DNA of 8,823 nucleotides, from the NCBI RefSeq assembly GCF_003334815.1, contig NZ_QOWO01000064.1. One strand, 5' to 3'. Of this stretch, positions 1 to 8,823 are shown in pieces. A program made the position numbers and the translations under genes. Each line of letters opens with the position of its first letter. Position 1 is the first letter of the stretch. Origin of the DNA: Escherichia coli (GTDB taxonomy: Bacteria > Pseudomonadota > Gammaproteobacteria > Enterobacterales > Enterobacteriaceae). The notes under the pieces are model-generated. The model was given only the letters and a program-made list of their open reading frames with translations. It did not search any database and had not been told where the DNA came from.

Positions 1-46
1 AACGGTGAACAATATCACCCTGGGTAAGTATCCGGAGGCGAAATGA
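1..46 (+). CDS. 3' end of a CbtA/YeeV-family toxin gene (partial; 5' portion lies outside the window)
   Basis: The frame starting at nt 2 translates TVNNITLGKYPEAK followed by TGA at 44-46. This C-terminal tail matches what I recall for CbtA/YeeV/YkfI/YpjF-type toxins of E. coli CP4-type cryptic prophages. The stop overlaps the next start codon (ATGA at 43-46). Recognition is from memory of a 14-residue tail only. Confidence 0.5.
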   Translation, partial: TVNNITLGKYPEAK

Positions 47-534
47 TGAAACTGGCCCTGACACTGGAAGCCGACAGTGTTAACGTACAGGCACTGAATA
101 TGGGGCGAATTGTCGTTGACATTGATGGTGTTAATCTCGCTGAACTGATTAACATGGTCTGCGATAACGGCTACTCCCTTCGTGTTGTTGATGAATCTGA
201 CCGGACCTCAGCAGACTGCACGCCACCATTTGTTGCCCTTACCGGCATACGCTGCAGTACCGCACATATCACGGAAACGGACAACGCCTGGCTGTACTCG
301 CTGTCACACCAGACCAGTGACTTCGGTGAATCAGAATGGATTCATTTTACCGGTACCGGTTATCTGTTACGTACCGATGCGTGGTCATACCCGGTTCTGC
401 GGCTTAAGCGCCTGGGGCTGTCAAAAACGTTCCGTCGTCTGGTCGTCACACTCATCCGGCGTTATGGTGTCAGTCTCATTCATCTGGATGCCAGTGCCGG
501 ATATCTGCCGGGTTTACCCACTTTCGACTGGTAA
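43..534 (+). CDS. Hypothetical protein of the kind encoded immediately downstream of cbtA-family toxin genes (YeeW-like); family assignment uncertain
   Basis: 163-aa ORF in the six-frame track. Its ATG at 43 overlaps the toxin stop by 4 nt, which is typical of coupled prophage modules. The product looks like a normal mixed-composition protein and resembles proteins I recall downstream of cbtA paralogs. GC about 50-58% by hand count on two lines. Confidence 0.6.
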   Translation: MMKLALTLEADSVNVQALNMGRIVVDIDGVNLAELINMVCDNGYSLRVVDESDRTSADCTPPFVALTGIRCSTAHITETDNAWLYSLSHQTSDFGESEWIHFTGTGYLLRTDAWSYPVLRLKRLGLSKTFRRLVVTLIRRYGVSLIHLDASAGYLPGLPTFDW

Positions 535-1636: not shown

Positions 1637-4528
1637 ATGATTGGTACAACACCTTATCATGCGAAATATTTTGCGCATGAACTTTCCATTCTTCATTCAA
1701 ACAATGGGGTGGACCGTCTGTCTCAATCGCTGTTTGATGCAAGCGTAGATCTAAACCCTCATCAAATTGAGGCGGCTCTTTTTGCTATCGAAAATCCGCT
1801 AAGCAAAGGTGTTGTGCTTGCCGATGAAGTTGGTTTGGGTAAAACCATTGAAGCTGGACTAGTGCTTTGCCAGTTGTGGGCTGAAAGAAAACGTAAACTG
1901 TTGATCATTTGTCCTGCTTCACTGCGTCGCCAATGGGCGAGCGAGTTACAGGAAAAGTTCAATCTACCTTCTCAGGTGTTGGACGCGAAAATGTATAGCC
2001 AGCTTCAAAAAGAAGGGATCCATAATCCCTTAAATAATAAATCGATCACTATCATGTCATACCACTATGCTGCTCGGTTAGAAGAGAAATTGGTGGCTGA
2101 AATGTGGGATCTGGTTGTTATCGACGAAGCCCATAAACTGCGTAATGCTCATCGAGAAAGCAACAAAATGGGGCAAGCGTTAAAGCGTGCGCTTGATGGG
2201 CGGAAGAAATTACTACTGACCGCAACGCCTTTACAGAACTCGTTGATGGAACTGTATGGCATGTCGACGCTTATAGATGAACATACCTTCGGCGAAGTTA
2301 AAGCGTTCAGAAAGCAATATATGCAGGCAGATAGCGATATTGCGGAGTTGAAGGGGCGATTGTCGCGTTTTATCAAACGAACTCTACGCAAGAATGTGCT
2401 GGAGTATATCAAGTATACAGAACGTAAAGCGATCACTATTCCTTTCTATCCGAGCGAACAGGAGCAGGATCTTTATGAACGCGTACAAAAATTGCTTGAA
2501 CGTGAGGATAGCTATGCCTTACCAAAACGACACCGGCATCTGACGGGGCTTATACTCAGAAAACTACTTTCCTCAAGTACGAAAGCCGTATTGAATAACT
2601 TGCAGATCCTTAAGACTCGTTTAGAAAGGTTAAAGCTGGAAGGTATCGTTGAAGATGATATGGACATCATCCAACAGATCATAATGGATGATGATCTTGA
2701 AGATGACATCGTTGAAGATGCCGAATCAGTAGCGCCAGATACAGAGTGCAAATCTGTGGATTCAGATGCGCTTCAGGCAGAAATCAATGAGCTGGAATCA
2801 CTCATTGTTAAAGCAGAACAGATTGGCACTGATACCAAATCAAAAGAGTTGCTTTCTGGCCTGGAGCAAGGTTTTGCACAGCTTGCCGAAATGGGGGCTG
2901 CAAAAAAAGTCATCATCTTCACGGAGTCGATGCGAACTCAACAGTACCTTGCACATTTTCTGGAAAACAATGGCTACCAGGGAAAAGTAGTAACCTTTAG
3001 TGGCACAAACAATACACCGCAGGCAAACAAGATCTACCAGCAATGGCGCGAGGAATATCAGGGATCTTCTCGTATTACCGGGTCGGCGCAAATTGATAAA
3101 CGCTCGGCTTTGATCGACCACTTCAAAGATCATGCTGAAATCATGATAGCTACAGAAGCTGCAGCTGAAGGGGTGAACCTGCAATTTTGTTCGCTACTGA
3201 TCAATTACGATTTACCCTGGAACCCACAACGCATTGAGCAGCGTATTGGACGTTGTCACCGATACGGGCAAAAATTTGATGTGGTTGTTATTAACTTCCT
3301 CAATCAGCGAAACCAGGCCGATCAACGCGTTCTTGAACTCTTAACTGAAAAGTTCAGCCTGTTTGATGGCGTGTTTGGCGCATCGGATAGTGTGCTTGGC
3401 AGCATAGAAAATGGTGTGGATTTTGAAAAAAGGATCCAGTCAATTTATGAGTCATGCCGTACCCCCGAGGAGATAGAGCTGGCTTTTGAAAGGTTGCAGA
3501 AAGAGCTGGAAGATGAAATCAATCTCAAGATGCAGAAGACGCAAGAACAGTTGCTTGAGCATTTTGATGAAGATATTCACGATATCCTTAAAATAAGGCT
3601 TGATGAAGCTCGGGAGCGCCTGGATAAAGTCGGTCGTTGGTTTTGGGCCGTGACCTGTCAGCAGCTCAAACAATATGCTGATTTTGATCATGAGCATCAT
3701 CGTTTCACTTTACGTGAATCAGTCAATGAACTGCCTGTCGGGCAGTACCAGCTGTTGCGCAAAGATGGCAGGCAAAATAGTGCGTTACAAATGCAGGATC
3801 ACCACAGTTTTGCATATCGGATCAATCATCCACTGGGTGAGTACGTCATTGACGGAGCTAAAGCCCAGGAGACGAAAACAGCTGAAGTCATCTTCGATTA
3901 CAGTAACCACACAACGAAAGTTTCGGTGGCTGAGCAGCTGAAAGGGCAATCAGGATGGTTAACACTAAATTTGCTTACTGTTGATGCGTTTAACAGGCAG
4001 CAATTTTTAGTCTTTACCGCGAAAACTGACAACGGACGTGTGGTAGATGGTGAAGCTTGTAAACGTCTGTTCAACTTGTCTGCAATAACCAACGAAAAGC
4101 TGGATAATTCGGCAAGTTTAGATGCATTACCTGATGACTTGATCTTACTCAAGAACAGGCAAATTGACGCCAGGCTTGCAGAAGTTTTGGAGCAGAACAA
4201 TGTCCTTTTTGAAGCGGAAAGAGATAAGCTGGAAAAATGGGCTGAAGACATGATCTTTGCGGCGGAAGAAGCATTACGCGATACCAAAATGCAAATCAAG
4301 TCGTTGAAGCGAGAAGCCAGGCTGGCGCAATCGATCGAAGAACAAAAGCAAAACCAGGAAAAGCTTAAGCTCCTGGAACGGCAGCAGAAGCGCCAACGTA
4401 TGGAAATTTTTGACATTGAAGATGAGATCGCCGACAAGCGGGATGAACTCATCAGTGCCCTTGAAGAGCGGATGAAGCAAAAGACGGATATCACCGAGCT
4501 GTTTACCATCCGCTGGAAAGTTATTTAA
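1637..4528 (+). CDS. SNF2-family (DEAH-type superfamily 2) helicase/ATPase, 963 aa; candidate DrmD-like component
   Basis: Motifs are visible in the translation: Walker A GLGKT (nt 1832-1846), motif II DEAH (2123-2134), the SNF2-type motif III TATPLQN, and in the C-terminal lobe motif V IATEAAAEGVNLQ and motif VI QRIGRCHRYGQ (3239-3271). A purine-rich Shine-Dalgarno-like stretch (AGAGAGAGAAAAG) precedes the ATG. GC about 43-47% by hand count. Confidence 0.9.
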   Translation: MIGTTPYHAKYFAHELSILHSNNGVDRLSQSLFDASVDLNPHQIEAALFAIENPLSKGVVLADEVGLGKTIEAGLVLCQLWAERKRKLLIICPASLRRQWASELQEKFNLPSQVLDAKMYSQLQKEGIHNPLNNKSITIMSYHYAARLEEKLVAEMWDLVVIDEAHKLRNAHRESNKMGQALKRALDGRKKLLLTATPLQNSLMELYGMSTLIDEHTFGEVKAFRKQYMQADSDIAELKGRLSRFIKRTLRKNVLEYIKYTERKAITIPFYPSEQEQDLYERVQKLLEREDSYALPKRHRHLTGLILRKLLSSSTKAVLNNLQILKTRLERLKLEGIVEDDMDIIQQIIMDDDLEDDIVEDAESVAPDTECKSVDSDALQAEINELESLIVKAEQIGTDTKSKELLSGLEQGFAQLAEMGAAKKVIIFTESMRTQQYLAHFLENNGYQGKVVTFSGTNNTPQANKIYQQWREEYQGSSRITGSAQIDKRSALIDHFKDHAEIMIATEAAAEGVNLQFCSLLINYDLPWNPQRIEQRIGRCHRYGQKFDVVVINFLNQRNQADQRVLELLTEKFSLFDGVFGASDSVLGSIENGVDFEKRIQSIYESCRTPEEIELAFERLQKELEDEINLKMQKTQEQLLEHFDEDIHDILKIRLDEARERLDKVGRWFWAVTCQQLKQYADFDHEHHRFTLRESVNELPVGQYQLLRKDGRQNSALQMQDHHSFAYRINHPLGEYVIDGAKAQETKTAEVIFDYSNHTTKVSVAEQLKGQSGWLTLNLLTVDAFNRQQFLVFTAKTDNGRVVDGEACKRLFNLSAITNEKLDNSASLDALPDDLILLKNRQIDARLAEVLEQNNVLFEAERDKLEKWAEDMIFAAEEALRDTKMQIKSLKREARLAQSIEEQKQNQEKLKLLERQQKRQRMEIFDIEDEIADKRDELISALEERMKQKTDITELFTIRWKVI

Positions 4529-4548
4529 TTGATTTGAAAGAGAAAATA

Positions 4549-7500
4549 ATGAGTAAGTACAACGAATTAGTTAAGAAGCTAAAAGAAATTTTTCAGATTG
4601 ATCGACCAGAACTGGATTTCGGTATTTATCGTATTTTAAATGCGCGTGCTGATGAAATTAACGACTATCTGGATAATAAGCTGAAGGCCAAAATCCAGTC
4701 TGCGCTGGCGGATGCAGGAAATGCCAATAAATCAGAATTAGAACATCAGTTGCAACTGACAATAAAAGCGGCAACTGATGCGGGTGTAGACCCTGCTGAT
4801 AGCCCAAAAGTACAGGAGCTTAAAAAGCAACTGGCGGCTATGGCATCCGGAGCAAATGAGCATGAAAATGCAGTATTTTCCCATCTGCTCACTTTCTTTT
4901 CGCGTTATTATGACAACGGCGATTTTATCAGCAAACGCCGTTATAAAGGTAATACCTACGCCATCCCCTATTCTGGCGAAGAAGTGATGTTGCACTGGGC
5001 AAATAAGGACCAGTACTACATTAAAAGCGGTGAAAACTTCGCTAATTATTCGTTCAAATTAGAAGACGGTCGTAAAGTTAGCTTTAAATTGCTCGCAGCG
5101 GACACAGCAAAAGATAACCGTAAAGATAATGAATTAGATCGCTGCTTTGTACTTATTGAGCCACATGTTCGTACCAAAATTGATGAAGAAGGCGATGAGT
5201 ACGAACAAGAATATAAGCCAGTAGAAGTGGTGAAAAACTCATCTGTGGTGGACGGTAAACTCGTTGAAACAGAAGAGTTAGTTATTCACTTCGAATATAA
5301 GGCAATGAAAAAGGGCACTAAGCAGGATGCTTTAGTACAGTCCGCCATTTCAACAATTCTGGCAGATAAAACAGTTCAACAGCATTGGGTTGATCTTGCT
5401 AAACGTGCGCCAACAGAAAAGAATCCGTCACGTACAGAGTTGGAGCGTCACCTTACAACTTATACCCAGCGTAATACAGCAGACTACTTTATCCATAAAG
5501 ATCTCGGTGGTTTTTTAACGAACGAACTGGATTTTTATATTAAAAATGAAGTAATGAATCTCGATAATGTGCAAAATGCAGAAGTGTTTGCCAATGTTGA
5601 GAAACAATTGCGCATGATTCAATGTTTGCGTGCTGTTGCGCTGGAACTCATTACATTTTTGGCACAAATTGAGAATTTCCAGAAAAAACTTTGGACTAAG
5701 AAGAAGTTTGTTGTTGGGCATGAGTATCTTGTGTCACTTTCAAATCTATCAGATTCGCTTTACGATAAAATTCGAACTAATAAAGGGCAACATGATGAAT
5801 GGGTTGAGCTTTATGCTGTAAATAAAATTCCTGGATATTCATTTCCATTCACAAAAGATTTCTTGTATAAAAATAATGGTATGATATTGGATACAAAATA
5901 TTTTGATCCGTCATTTAAGGAGGTTTTTTTAACAGAGTTAACTAATGTTGACGATAATTTAGATGGTCTCTTAATTAATTCAGATAATTATCAGGCCATT
6001 AATTTTTTGGAGGGGCGGTATAAGGACTCAATAGACTGTCTTTATATTGATCCTCCGTATAATACTGCGGCTTCAGAAATTTTATATAAAAATGAATATA
6101 AGCACAGCAGCTGGAATTCATTAATGTATGAAAGGATATCTAAAAGCTATAATTTACTGAAAATTTCTGCAATTAATTTTACCGCGATAGATCATGCGGA
6201 ATTATATAATCTTGGTAAGATCAAGGATGAAATCTATGGAGAACAAAACAGGATAGCAGTTGTTACTGTTCAGCATAATCCTAAAGGGCGTAACCAGGCA
6301 AAGTTCTTTTCTGAAAATACTGAGTATATGTTAGTATATGCTAAAGATTTTAATGCTGCTAACTTTAACTCTGTAGCTATCGATGAGGATGTGCTTTTAA
6401 CATTCACAGAACAAGATAATATAGGCCGTTATCGTTGGGAAAACTTTATTCGTGCAAGAACAAGTTGGTCCAGAGCAAATAGACCAAATAACTGGTATCC
6501 TTTATACGTCTCTTCCGACTTAAAATCAATTTCTGTTGATTATGTAGATGGGTATATCGAAGTATATCCTACAACTAAACAGGGGGATTTTTCGTGGAAA
6601 AATATTAAAGAATCATTTGTTGAATTAAATAAAGATAATTATTTTAAAGCTGTAAATGAAAATGGAGAAATAAAAATCTATCATAAATATAGGGAGCAGC
6701 AAGTCTTTAAAAATCTTTGGATTGATAAGAAATATCAGTCTGAGTTTAATGGTACAAATTTACTGAAAAACATACTTGGACAATCACTATTTGATTATCC
6801 GAAATCATTATATGCAGTACAAGATGCAATCAAAATGTCGACACCACACAATGGTATTGTATTGGACTATTTTGCAGGTTCAGGGACAACTTCTCATGCA
6901 GTAATAAACCTTAATAATTCAGATAATCTCTGTATGAAATTTATCAATGTTGAAATGGGTACTCATTTCAATACAGTAGTTATTCCAAGATTGAAGAAAA
7001 TTGGATATTCAAACTTATGGAAACAATGTAAACCAATCGGTAAACCTCAAAAAATGACTATCAAGTATTTGAAACTTGAAAGTTATGAGGATGCTCTTAA
7101 TAATATACAATTACGAAGTTATTCATTGCATCAGGATATTTTCGACATTTTGGTGGAAGATGTAAAATCAGAGTTTGCTCTTAAATATATTTTTGAAAAT
7201 GAATTATTTTATTCACTATTAAATACTGATAATTTCAAAAAACCATTTAACTACGAAATGGATATTGCGACGGATTCCGCCGGTGCCACTGAGCGTAAAA
7301 ACATCGATTTAGTTGAAACTTTCAATTATCTCATTGGCTTACATGTGAAATCCATCGAATCTGATATCGCACGTGGCTATGTGCGTATTGAAGGAACGCT
7401 GCCAACAGGCGAGCGTACCCTTATTCTGTGGCGCGATTGCGACAAGATCGGTTATGAAGAATTGAATAAATATGCCAACCGATTTGATTTGTATGCAAAA

Positions 7501-7653
7501 GAAAACACGTTCGACGTTATCTACATCAATGGCGATCATAACTTACCTACCGCCTTTACCGTTGATGAAGAAGACGGCGAGATTGTTCGTAGCCTGAAAA
7601 TTCGCCAGATCGAACCTGAATTCTTGAACCTGATGTTTGCGGAGGAGGTTTAA
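4549..7653 (+). CDS. Beta-class DNA methyltransferase (N6-adenine/N4-cytosine type, Type III Mod-like catalytic core) with a ~420-aa N-terminal extension, 1034 aa; candidate DrmMI-like component
   Basis: Motif IV DPPY (CLYIDPPYN, nt 6049-6060) precedes motif I FxGxG (LDYFAGSGTT, nt 6865-6891) by about 270 residues, which is the beta-class order with room for a target-recognition domain between them. I place the start at ATG 4549, preceded by AAAGAG; the track starts at an in-frame TTG at 4534, which remains a possible alternative. Only 20 nt separate it from the upstream stop. Confidence 0.88.
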   Translation: MSKYNELVKKLKEIFQIDRPELDFGIYRILNARADEINDYLDNKLKAKIQSALADAGNANKSELEHQLQLTIKAATDAGVDPADSPKVQELKKQLAAMASGANEHENAVFSHLLTFFSRYYDNGDFISKRRYKGNTYAIPYSGEEVMLHWANKDQYYIKSGENFANYSFKLEDGRKVSFKLLAADTAKDNRKDNELDRCFVLIEPHVRTKIDEEGDEYEQEYKPVEVVKNSSVVDGKLVETEELVIHFEYKAMKKGTKQDALVQSAISTILADKTVQQHWVDLAKRAPTEKNPSRTELERHLTTYTQRNTADYFIHKDLGGFLTNELDFYIKNEVMNLDNVQNAEVFANVEKQLRMIQCLRAVALELITFLAQIENFQKKLWTKKKFVVGHEYLVSLSNLSDSLYDKIRTNKGQHDEWVELYAVNKIPGYSFPFTKDFLYKNNGMILDTKYFDPSFKEVFLTELTNVDDNLDGLLINSDNYQAINFLEGRYKDSIDCLYIDPPYNTAASEILYKNEYKHSSWNSLMYERISKSYNLLKISAINFTAIDHAELYNLGKIKDEIYGEQNRIAVVTVQHNPKGRNQAKFFSENTEYMLVYAKDFNAANFNSVAIDEDVLLTFTEQDNIGRYRWENFIRARTSWSRANRPNNWYPLYVSSDLKSISVDYVDGYIEVYPTTKQGDFSWKNIKESFVELNKDNYFKAVNENGEIKIYHKYREQQVFKNLWIDKKYQSEFNGTNLLKNILGQSLFDYPKSLYAVQDAIKMSTPHNGIVLDYFAGSGTTSHAVINLNNSDNLCMKFINVEMGTHFNTVVIPRLKKIGYSNLWKQCKPIGKPQKMTIKYLKLESYEDALNNIQLRSYSLHQDIFDILVEDVKSEFALKYIFENELFYSLLNTDNFKKPFNYEMDIATDSAGATERKNIDLVETFNYLIGLHVKSIESDIARGYVRIEGTLPTGERTLILWRDCDKIGYEELNKYANRFDLYAKENTFDVIYINGDHNLPTAFTVDEEDGEIVRSLKIRQIEPEFLNLMFAEEV
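7641..7648 (+). promoter_or_regulatory. Shine-Dalgarno sequence GGAGGAGG for the third gene, embedded in the last codons of the methyltransferase gene
   Basis: GGAGGAGG lies 7 nt upstream of ATG 7656. The methyltransferase stop (7651-7653) and the next start are 2 nt apart, which suggests translational coupling. Confidence 0.6.
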
Positions 7654-7655
7654 GA

Positions 7656-8669
7656 ATGGCTAAAAAACCGACCACCGGTAAAGCAGTTAAAAAAGAGACT
7701 AACAGCAAGCTGAGCTTTCATAAACAACTGGTTTTAAACCGCTTTATGTTCCATTTTTTCAAAGATGGCACATTGCAAGGTTTGAAGAATCGGTTAGGCG
7801 AGGATCGCTTTGAAGGCATCCATGAAGATGGCCAAAGCTTGTTCTTCCATGAGCTGAGTAACTATTTATTCGAGGTCGATCTAATCGATCTCGATGAACT
7901 GCGTCGTTACGATCTCAATATCGTGCAGCACTGGCAGCAGATAACCGAGCACCGTAATCGTAAAGAAGACACTGTGCTGAACATGAAATATTTTCAGTAC
8001 TTGTCGCTTCTGTTTACCGAGATCTACCTGGACTGGTACTTCAATCGTAAACAGCAATTACTCGATGGGCTAAATAACGAGCTGGCAGCATACAATGCTG
8101 AAAATGATAAAACAGCAAAAGACCGGGCTAATCAGTTCAAATCATATGTTCTGGATGATTTGAATAAATTGGCATACTGGAACGCTACTGGTTCTGGTAA
8201 GACACTGCTATTACATGTCAATATTTTGCAATATTTACATTATTTCCAGAACGGTAATAGCCATCATTATCCGGATAAAATCATCCTGCTTACGCCGGAT
8301 GAACGCCTGTCGAAGCAACATTTAGATGAACTGGAAAACTCAGGGTTTACCCAATACCAGTTGTTCGATAAGAGTAAATCAGCGCCCTTCAAAGGCACGA
8401 TTGAAGTCATTGATATCAATAAACTTGATGATAAAATGGGCGACAAAACTGTTGCCGTTGAGGCATTTGAAGGCAACAATCTGGTCCTGATTGATGAAGG
8501 GCATAAAGGCACAGGAAGTGCTGCTGGTGCCTGGATGCGCCGTCGTGACAAGTTAACTCGTGACGGATTTGCGTTTGAATATTCAGCAACTTTTGGCCAG
8601 GCAGTAGCCGGTGGCAATAATGTGGAGGCAGTTGAAACAGAAATTCAGAAGAAAAAAGCAAAGCTCTGA
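7656..8669 (+). CDS. Helicase-like ATPase containing only the first RecA-like lobe (Type III Res-like / DrmA-like N-terminal region), 337 aa; probably truncated or disrupted
   Basis: Walker A ATGSGKT (nt 8184-8204; GSGKT at 8190-8204), motif II LIDEGH (DEGH at 8493-8504) and a motif III-like SAT (8583-8591) are present. The ORF stops at 8667-8669 with no motifs IV-VI and no arginine-finger region. The following 8670-8732 has stops in all three forward frames. Confidence 0.75.
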   Translation: MAKKPTTGKAVKKETNSKLSFHKQLVLNRFMFHFFKDGTLQGLKNRLGEDRFEGIHEDGQSLFFHELSNYLFEVDLIDLDELRRYDLNIVQHWQQITEHRNRKEDTVLNMKYFQYLSLLFTEIYLDWYFNRKQQLLDGLNNELAAYNAENDKTAKDRANQFKSYVLDDLNKLAYWNATGSGKTLLLHVNILQYLHYFQNGNSHHYPDKIILLTPDERLSKQHLDELENSGFTQYQLFDKSKSAPFKGTIEVIDINKLDDKMGDKTVAVEAFEGNNLVLIDEGHKGTGSAAGAWMRRRDKLTRDGFAFEYSATFGQAVAGGNNVEAVETEIQKKKAKL

Positions 8670-8823
8670 GAGATCCCCTCATAATTTCCCCAAAGCGTAA
8701 CCATGTGTGAATAAATTTTGAGCTAGTAGGGTTGCAGCCACGAGTAAGTCTTCCCTTGTTATTGTGTAGCCAGAATGCCGCAAAACTTCCATGCCTAAGC
8801 GAACTGTTGAGAGTACGTTTCGA

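Follow-up and report, generated by a model that had tools for sequence, protein, structure and literature searches.

An AT-rich, probably swappable methyltransferase cassette in a Type III restriction-modification operon of the Escherichia coli leuX island

The operon and the AT-rich block of mod

We analyzed a stretch of Escherichia coli DNA of 8,823 nucleotides (nt; contig NZ_QOWO01000064.1), referred to below as the window, which holds three genes in one direction: an SNF2-like ATPase gene, the methyltransferase gene mod and the start of the restriction gene res. Judged from its sequence, the operon is a three-gene Type III restriction-modification system of the Eco86II family, encoding an SNF2-like ATPase, Mod and Res, in the E. 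coli leuX island. The Eco86II family consists of Type III systems with an additional helicase-like ATPase gene located 5' of mod, the example being that of E. coli NCTC86 (Murray et al. 2021, PMC8259958). Our subject is the AT-rich middle of mod, which an earlier reading of the window, made without database searches (the sequence-only reading), had taken for a catalytic and specificity module brought in by recombination from a donor of lower GC (guanine plus cytosine content) while both ends of the gene were retained. The features of the window are listed here, with GC and GC3 (GC at third codon positions) for the three parts of mod; aa stands for amino acids.

1637..4528, + strand: SNF2-like (DrmD-like) helicase/ATPase gene, the third component, 5' of mod (PADLOC, NCBIfam)
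4549..7653, + strand: mod gene, 1034 aa, Type III beta-class amino-methyltransferase (PADLOC, Pfam, RefSeq annotation)
4549..5715, + strand: conserved N-terminal segment of Mod, 389 aa, kept in all alleles; GC 39.8%, GC3 0.37 (allele alignment)
5716..7227, + strand: AT-rich cassette that varies between alleles, 1512 nt / 504 aa, encoding a complete Mod body; GC 30.6%, GC3 0.24 (GC, allele breakpoints)
6049..6060, + strand: catalytic motif IV, DPPY, residues 501-504 (present in all six cassettes)
6109..6828, + strand: presumed target-recognition domain, residues ~521-760, with the highest variability (placed between motifs IV and I like that of EcoP15I Mod)
6871..6891, + strand: S-adenosylmethionine-binding motif I, FAGSGTT, residues 775-781 (sequence)
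7228..7653, + strand: conserved C-terminal segment of Mod, 141 aa plus stop, kept in all alleles; GC 42.3%, GC3 0.46 (allele alignment)
7656..8665, + strand: first third (5') of res, the gene for the SF2 helicase-nuclease subunit, interrupted by an insertion sequence (IS) (PADLOC)
8666..8823, no strand assigned: end of an IS10/ISVsa5 (IS4-family) element inserted in res (identity to ISVsa5 ends)

The start of mod was taken at the RefSeq ATG at 4549 (MSKYNELV...), where every allele and family alignment begins, and not at the TTG at 4534 given in a program-made list of open reading frames. The product matched the PADLOC profile MTase_III PDLC03646 over its full length (1551 bits) and Pfam N6_N4_Mtase (PF01555) over residues 500-809 (1.9e-23). 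Its motifs run in the order of a Type III Mod, from motif IV (DPPY, residue 501) through the recognition domain to motif I (FAGSGTT, residue 775). Three solved Type III Mods matched it, those of EcoP15I (4zcf, 3e-25), Helicobacter pylori (6k0w, 2e-24) and Mbo45V (7dsu, 5e-23), and all three matches were confined to the AT-rich block. Since the window cassette aligns with residues 91-470 and beyond of EcoP15I Mod (E = 3e-25), the block corresponds to a whole Mod body. Across the family the mean pairwise identity of the recognition domain is only 0.14-0.35. The N-terminal segment, in contrast to the block, is 92-100% identical in nt and ~99% in aa among E. coli alleles, and the C-terminal segment 96-100% in aa. 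No Pfam domain matched the N-terminal segment, and its AlphaFold2 model (predicted local distance difference test score 70.5, predicted template modeling score 0.48) found no Foldseek match in the PDB at E<=0.001; across phyla the segment is 45-87% identical in aa, and 2216 proteins matched it at E<=1e-20.

The ATPase gene, whose top PADLOC match was DrmD (4e-199), ends 20 nt before mod, an arrangement shared with the NCTC86 locus, and 40 of 54 family loci carry a homologue upstream of mod on its strand. In some lineages (a metagenome contig, Cardiobacterium, Pasteurellaceae and Moraxella; loci L090, L057, L060-L064 and L078) mod has no SNF2-like gene upstream of it; in L090 this gene comes after res, and the three-gene order is not fixed. 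A Res gene follows mod in 55 of 56 family loci. Intact res genes of relatives are 3381 nt long and encode 1126 aa with a ResIII domain, while the window holds a fragment that matched PADLOC REase_III (4e-205) at profile positions 7-341 of 1154. The gene is broken after codon 337 by the IS10/ISVsa5 end: similarity to intact res stops at 8665, the IS terminal sequence CTGAGAGATCCCC begins at 8666, and bases 8667-8823 are 100% identical to the ends of the IS4-like element ISVsa5 on R100 and more than 1100 other plasmids. Because res is cut at 8666, the window strain may have kept methylation and lost restriction, its mod copy acting as a methyltransferase only.

The low-GC block is real and not a chance fluctuation, although its contrast with the flanks is about half of what the sequence-only reading had claimed (30.6% against 40-42% GC). 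A sliding profile showed a trough of 24-36% at ~5700-7300 compared with 40-47% elsewhere, so that the discontinuity expected from the earlier hand counts was found, and it appeared in GC3 and codon usage as well. The block lies ~10 GC points below its own flanks and ~14 below the neighboring SNF2 gene, and differs from the remaining gene with a chi-square of 32.5 (p = 1e-8). From third codon positions alone, the best two-breakpoint segment was 5734-7248 (GC3 0.24 inside, 0.40 outside), with a log-likelihood ratio of 16.0 against a maximum of 10.9 over 200 shuffles. These compositional edges fall ~20 nt or less from the homology breakpoints at 5715/5716 and 7227/7228, which were found independently by allele comparison (below). 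Codons ending in G or C are rarer inside the block for 15 of 18 amino acids and GC at second codon positions (GC2) is unaltered (0.28 in the block, 0.29-0.30 in the flanks), and the dip is for these reasons largely synonymous.

Several details of the hand counts needed correction. The left edge, put at 5820, lies ~100 nt further upstream in the computed profile; the 60-nt lines over 5821-7260, said to hold 15-27% GC, range from 15 to 43% with a mean of 30% (9 of 24 fall inside the claimed range), and those from 7261 on, given as 47-57%, range from 32 to 57% with a mean of 44%. The two lines at the right edge were exact (20% at 7201, 47% at 7261), as was the position of DPPY at 6049-6060. FAGSGTT does lie in the block, but at 6871-6891, the claimed 6865-6891 having taken in two extra codons.

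Cassette alleles and their exchange

To survey the alleles we ran megablast with the mod gene against 5426 complete E. coli genomes. The mod flanks were present in 167 of them, with only 17 carrying the gene end to end; most of the others matched in two pieces, query 1-1181 and 2680-3120. Between these pieces lies one of the following cassettes, named after the locus that typifies each, and the six counts add up to all 167 flank-carrying genomes.

Window-type cassette: 17 genomes
L002-type cassette: 34 genomes
L003-type cassette: 91 genomes
L004-type cassette: 18 genomes
L005-type cassette: 2 genomes, one of them the 78% variant
L006-type cassette: 5 genomes

The block at 5716-7227 thus occurs as six discrete alleles and one 78% variant. 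Within an allele the sequence is at least 99% uniform, a few outliers excepted, while between alleles the center is essentially unalignable as DNA and shares 30-41% aa identity, its length varying from 1512 to 1581 nt. The flanks of the six aligned alleles are 92-100% identical in nt. Every allele has the same breakpoints, the left one after ...AAGTTTGTTGT(T/A) and the right one before GATAATTTCAAAAAACC; in the protein they fall after KKFVV (residues 389/390) and before DNFKKPF (893/894), enclosing both catalytic motifs. Conservation extends into the neighboring genes, with chromosomal loci that carry different cassettes matching the window at 97.7-99.7% nt in the SNF2 gene and 95.5-97.2% nt in the 5' end of res. 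The flanks are themselves mosaic between alleles.

Comparing the three parts of Mod separately, we found that their phylogenies are not co-linear, in line with what the sequence-only reading had anticipated for an exchanged module. Sister E. coli alleles resemble the window Mod at 99% aa in the N-terminal segment and 96-100% in the C-terminal segment but at only 32-37% in the cassette, whereas foreign family members show the opposite pattern, with 40-53%, 28-55% and 48-64%, respectively. Classical two-gene Mods (with a PF12564 N terminus) have no homologous N or C segment, and yet share 53-55% aa identity with the window cassette. Over 70 family genes, similarity in N correlated with similarity in C (Spearman rho 0.84) far more closely than with similarity in the cassette (rho 0.27). 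For every E. coli cassette the best match comes from a lineage other than E. coli and is closer than the sister alleles; the L004-type cassette, for example, is 67% identical to one from Arsukibacterium and 50% to one from Chloracidobacterium. Pairs of strains with the same cassette showed the complementary signal. Between the window and strain D8 the cassette is 0.53% diverged, compared with 3.0-3.3% in the flanks and 2.9% in SNF2 (Fisher p = 5e-8), and between NCTC86 and A3024 it is 0.65% diverged, compared with 2.1-2.7% in the flanks. One variable region on diverged flanks is what Gawthorne et al. 2012 (PMC3311624) predicted to see when modA regions are transferred en bloc.

Taken together, the six alleles and the 78% variant, the near-identical flanks and the identical breakpoints bear out the proposal that the catalytic and recognition block was exchanged by recombination while the flanks were kept. 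Cassette exchange is well supported by these sequence comparisons, and the AT-rich middle of mod is very probably one of at least six swappable whole-Mod cassettes that recombine between strains within conserved gene ends. Each genome has one mod copy. The only tandem repeat in mod was a 9-nt unit in 2.1 copies, with no homopolymer or tetranucleotide tracts, and no cassette-flanking repeats, inverted repeats or silent cassettes were found when looked for. We therefore rejected an intragenomic switching mechanism. With repeat tracts, flanking repeats and second copies all absent, ordinary homologous recombination appears the likely route: once DNA has been transferred, recombination in the conserved flanks would carry cassettes en bloc from strain to strain. 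The pool of cassettes would originally have been supplied by horizontal transfer from other Mod lineages, and one restriction machinery could in this way be re-targeted through cassette replacement, with phage-driven, frequency-dependent selection perhaps maintaining the diversity. The conserved N and C segments would work with Res, perhaps also with the ATPase; their co-variation suggests a role as the interface with Res or the ATPase.

Further copies of the system were noted. Plasmid p1 of E. coli I3 (NZ_CP195970.1, L005; 123 kb) carries the three-gene system with its own cassette among IS1, IS3, IS30 and IS5 elements, its SNF2 gene being 73% identical to the chromosomal ones and its mod flanks and res ~95-99%. 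In a Salmonella enterica protein, P0141 (586 aa), only 56 residues separate the N segment (1-389) from the C segment (446-586), and the entire methyltransferase cassette appears to have been lost between the two junctions. Inactivation of the locus is frequent in other strains: A3024 mod (L002 6016-9138) has an internal stop, strains 300033 and WP4-S18-ESBL-09 have lost the 5' part of mod to IS1 elements, and several genomes have an IS1B within the L003-type cassette. Database entries for E. coli Mod are to a very large extent partial, stopping at contig edges and frequently close to the junction of N segment and cassette. Draft assemblies seem to break in mod, possibly because of IS insertions or poor coverage of the AT-rich block.

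Base composition, donors and competing explanations

We sought the origin of the AT-richness in a donor search and in the composition of the wider family. All six E. coli cassettes are AT-rich (GC 30.6-34.1%, GC3 0.20-0.25). Among 5.8 billion proteins, matches of 99% to the window cassette were found only in E. coli and the next best were at 48-64% aa identity; outside E. coli none exceeded 60% aa except for 64% over a 299-aa fragment. In the 90% cluster of the window protein, all members that were read bore the name E. coli, and a tblastn search of plasmids for a cassette donor gave 53.6% at best, on a Conchiformibius steedae plasmid. For composition we used the 64 intact loci of a family sample of 80 loci from genomes of many phyla, the hosts of the 64 having 28-62% GC. 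Compared with its flanks, the cassette had lower GC in 63 of 64 loci and lower GC3 in all 64, with a mean GC3 difference of -0.16. The GC3 deficit grows with locus GC and never reverses, and in hosts of 25-38% GC its mean is still -0.105. Cassette GC follows the GC of the surrounding locus (r = 0.93), which implies that cassettes are largely adapted to their current hosts.

The position of the dip was informative in its own right. Family-wide, the GC3 dip is centered on the recognition domain (-0.24, 64/64), intermediate at the motif regions and gone at the cassette edges, and breakpoints in other lineages range from the recognition domain only (~506-771), an exchange seen in some family pairs outside E. 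coli, to the whole domain (~389-900). In the window the dip is flat across residues 390-893, matching the E. coli exchange unit. Across the sampled loci, AT-richness is a family-wide property of whichever segment is exchangeable and not the signature of one donor. Because the dip follows the exchangeable segment whatever the host GC, AT-richness cannot identify a donor, and a low-GC patch in a defense gene should be read with caution in this respect. Such a dip could arise from the general AT bias of DNA that circulates horizontally, from faster evolution where mutation is AT-biased, or from divergent cassettes being barred from homologous recombination and so from biased gene conversion. The AT-richness is probably the AT bias usual in DNA that circulates horizontally, evolves fast and is unable to recombine with divergent counterparts.

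These results bear directly on the lower-GC donor of the sequence-only reading, that is, on a one-off and fairly recent import whose composition would be the donor's fingerprint. Such an import would account for a block 10 GC points below its flanks and 14 below the SNF2 gene, and the nearest cassette relatives do include Mods named from Pasteurellaceae, Neisseriaceae and Flavobacteriia; in Neisseria modA12, moreover, the lower GC of the variable region has been taken as a sign of horizontal transfer (PMC3311624). However, nothing recent could be traced, there being no relative above 60% aa outside E. coli beyond the 299-aa fragment, and six cassettes of one species are equally AT-rich. If cassettes were imported from a shared pool, then the sign of the GC3 difference should reverse in low-GC hosts, and no reversal occurs there; the tracking of locus GC by cassette GC speaks against a fingerprint as well. 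We therefore set the lower-GC donor aside and consider this import unlikely. An effect of amino acid composition alone, in which domains rich in N, K, Y and I lower GC without any exchange, has in its favor that the cassette protein holds more N, Y, S and I and less A, E and R than the flanks, and that GC at first codon positions drops from 0.53 to 0.40. It would leave unexplained the fall in GC3 from 0.37-0.46 to 0.24, the codon shift in 15 of 18 amino acids with GC2 unaltered, the flatness of the dip over 390-893, which includes stretches as conserved family-wide as the flanks, and the disagreement between segment phylogenies; it is very improbable. That the block is an assembly chimera or sequencing artefact might be suspected from the many partial database entries ending at contig edges, but the reading frame is intact and the whole gene occurs in 17 independent complete genomes (among those listed, three are 100% and 13 at least 99% identical), and we regard an artefact as next to impossible.

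A different kind of alternative is an ancient balanced polymorphism without foreign input, in which alleles diverged in place under diversifying selection while gene conversion homogenized the flanks. The alleles are discrete and old and lack intermediates, and the mosaic flanks speak for it as well. Further, a Salmonella protein with an Eco86II-type cassette is 82% identical in the cassette and 94-96% in the C flank, which suggests that the Eco86II-type allele predates or spans the species split and that the cassette evolves faster than its flanks. Each E. coli cassette is nevertheless closer to a distant lineage than to its sisters, as in the 67% match of the L004 type to Arsukibacterium, and the window type is 53-64% identical to foreign Mods, including classical Mods of another architecture. 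Because of this closeness to distant lineages, transfer between lineages is required at some point, and in-place divergence on its own seems improbable to us. Several points nevertheless weigh against the exchange of whole-Mod cassettes between strains. Recombination is deduced from sequence comparison, and an old in-situ polymorphism with homogenized flanks could give much the same picture. No donor of the window cassette was found, the best relative outside E. coli sharing 60% aa over most of the cassette. A changed specificity of the window cassette is predicted, as is the contact role of the N and C segments, and the model of the N domain had no fold match. The identification of the NCTC86 locus with Eco86II, discussed below, was based on gene order and three methylome-matched strains, not on an accession. 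Finally, with res broken by IS10 in the window strain, this particular mod copy is possibly a methyltransferase only.

Specificity and relation to known systems

One of the sister cassettes can be linked to a characterized enzyme. The NCTC86 chromosome carries the same locus in the order SNF2-mod-res with an L002-type cassette, and strains F9792 and B4103-1, which are listed with the Eco86II GAGCC methylome of N4-methylcytosine (m4C) (PMC8259958), carry the L002-type cassette as well. The L002-type cassette is very probably that of the characterized M.Eco86II (m4C, GAGCC). M.Eco86II alone methylates GAGCC, and Mod plus Res cuts ~25 base pairs 3' of the site; hemimethylation of the asymmetric site and ATP-dependent cleavage needing both Mod and Res are reported for Eco86II (PMC8259958). 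The window cassette is 30% identical in aa to the Eco86II type globally, its best local BLASTP stretch being 37% over 159 residues, and the recognition region of the window does not align with the L002-type allele. A different recognition sequence is expected from this unalignable region, and the target base possibly differs too. The suggestion that domain shuffling may have altered methylation specificity is accordingly plausible, and a cassette swap probably changes the DNA sequence that is marked and protected.

Whether the chemistry of the mark also changes is a more tentative matter. We found no sequence motif separating m4C from N6-methyladenine (m6A) enzymes: DPPY is present in all cassettes, and PMC8259958 gives no discriminator. 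The architecturally distinct closest relatives of the window cassette are classical Type III Mods. Classical Type III Mods are the class characterized as m6A enzymes. It is conceivable, although we lean against it, that the N and C segments form a socket accepting any complete Type III Mod body, that a swap changes the chemistry of the mark together with the recognition sequence (m6A for the window cassette, m4C for Eco86II), and that the same Res and SNF2 ATPase read both.

If whole-Mod cassettes are exchanged as proposed, the restriction machinery of E. coli would be re-targeted through the whole methyltransferase body between fixed recombination points and not through the recognition domain alone. 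We predict that six or more methylation specificities occur at a single chromosomal locus among natural E. coli, which would matter for phage host range, for barriers to plasmid transfer and for the interpretation of methylomes. The fixed junctions after KKFVV and before DNFKKPF offer a ready design for chimeric Type III enzymes, and they draw attention to the N and C segments as the parts of Mod that likely touch Res or the third ATPase.

The surroundings of the operon are those of a genomic island. E. coli SCU-172 has DNA identical to the window in its leuX island, with CP4-type island genes on one side of it and nanC/nanM on the other. The system stands at the end of a CP4-type integrated element adjoining tRNA-Leu (leuX). 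A DUF5983 gene occupies window positions 43-534, with YeeU/CbtA toxin-antitoxin and antirestriction genes further upstream in L001; downstream, relatives have a gene for a phosphorothioate-DNA-dependent restriction endonuclease, often truncated. Other identities were considered and rejected. DISARM class 1, in which DrmD is accompanied by the helicase DrmA, by DrmB (DUF1998) and by DrmC (PLD), did not fit, since the ATPase scored 667 bits against NCBIfam DISARM_DrmD_b, under the cut-off of 950, and its partners are a PF01555 Mod and a ResIII Res; in the Pfam search Res had no DUF1998 or PLD domain. ARMADA type II, considered for its combination of the leuX/OI-172 island with a variable methyltransferase, has a PglX-like ArmB, a YprA-family DUF1998 helicase ArmC and a UvrD-like ArmD (bioRxiv 10.1101/2025.09.15.676423, 10.1101/2025.09.22.677730), whereas the window has a beta-class PF01555 Mod and a ResIII-type helicase. 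Hma was ruled out as the operon identity by partner genes and domain content, and EcoMI (leuX island, ST131), considered as a sister allele, is an unrelated Eco31I-type Type IIS system.

Among characterized Type III systems, Eco86II shares with the window the locus, the gene order and the Res family, the flanks being 97-98% identical in nt to NCTC86; the window differs in its cassette and in having res interrupted by IS10. Murray et al. 2021 (PMC8259958) describes neither allelic cassettes nor a compositional mosaic. The Mods of EcoP1I and EcoP15I have the same beta-class order of motif IV, target-recognition domain and motif I as the window Mod; they differ from each other chiefly in the central recognition region, and their Res subunits are almost identical (PMC8259958). 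EcoP15I Mod, however, belongs to a two-gene system and at 644 aa is without the 389-aa N and 141-aa C segments, both of which the window Mod has. In Type I systems, specificity modules of hsdS are exchanged by recombination in conserved repeats or flanks while the machinery is unchanged. HsdS is a separate subunit without catalytic motifs, and its shuffling is often intragenomic, between silent copies. In E. coli mod, unlike hsdS, each genome has a single copy, and catalytic and recognition domains move together.

The modA genes of Haemophilus influenzae and of pathogenic Neisseria species resemble E. coli mod in their conserved 5' and 3' parts, hypervariable center and conserved res, and in both systems the variable regions resemble mod genes of unrelated species and point to en-bloc transfer onto diverged flanks. 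The modA alleles are likewise discrete, with >95% identity within and ~30-38% aa identity between alleles (Bayliss et al. 2006, PMC1557822; Gawthorne et al. 2012, PMC3311624). The exchanged unit is a different one. In modA the variable region spans 594-750 nt, the catalytic motifs lie outside it and methyltransferase activity is assigned to the conserved parts, whereas in E. coli mod it spans 1512-1581 nt with breakpoints that enclose motifs IV and I, and the conserved parts are additional N and C segments without counterpart in classical Mods. Also, modA is phase-variable while E. coli mod has no repeat tract or sign of phase variation, the E. coli host is not naturally transformable in the manner of Neisseria and Haemophilus, and the E. 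coli operon has a third, SNF2-like gene that modA systems do not. Already known from modA are therefore the conserved ends around a hypervariable center, alleles that are discrete and have foreign relatives, transfer en bloc and a lower GC. New here are an exchanged unit twice as long that contains both motifs, the extra conserved domains, the lack of a phase tract, the third ATPase and the E. coli host, which together make this locus a larger-scale version of a known route by which such systems diversify.

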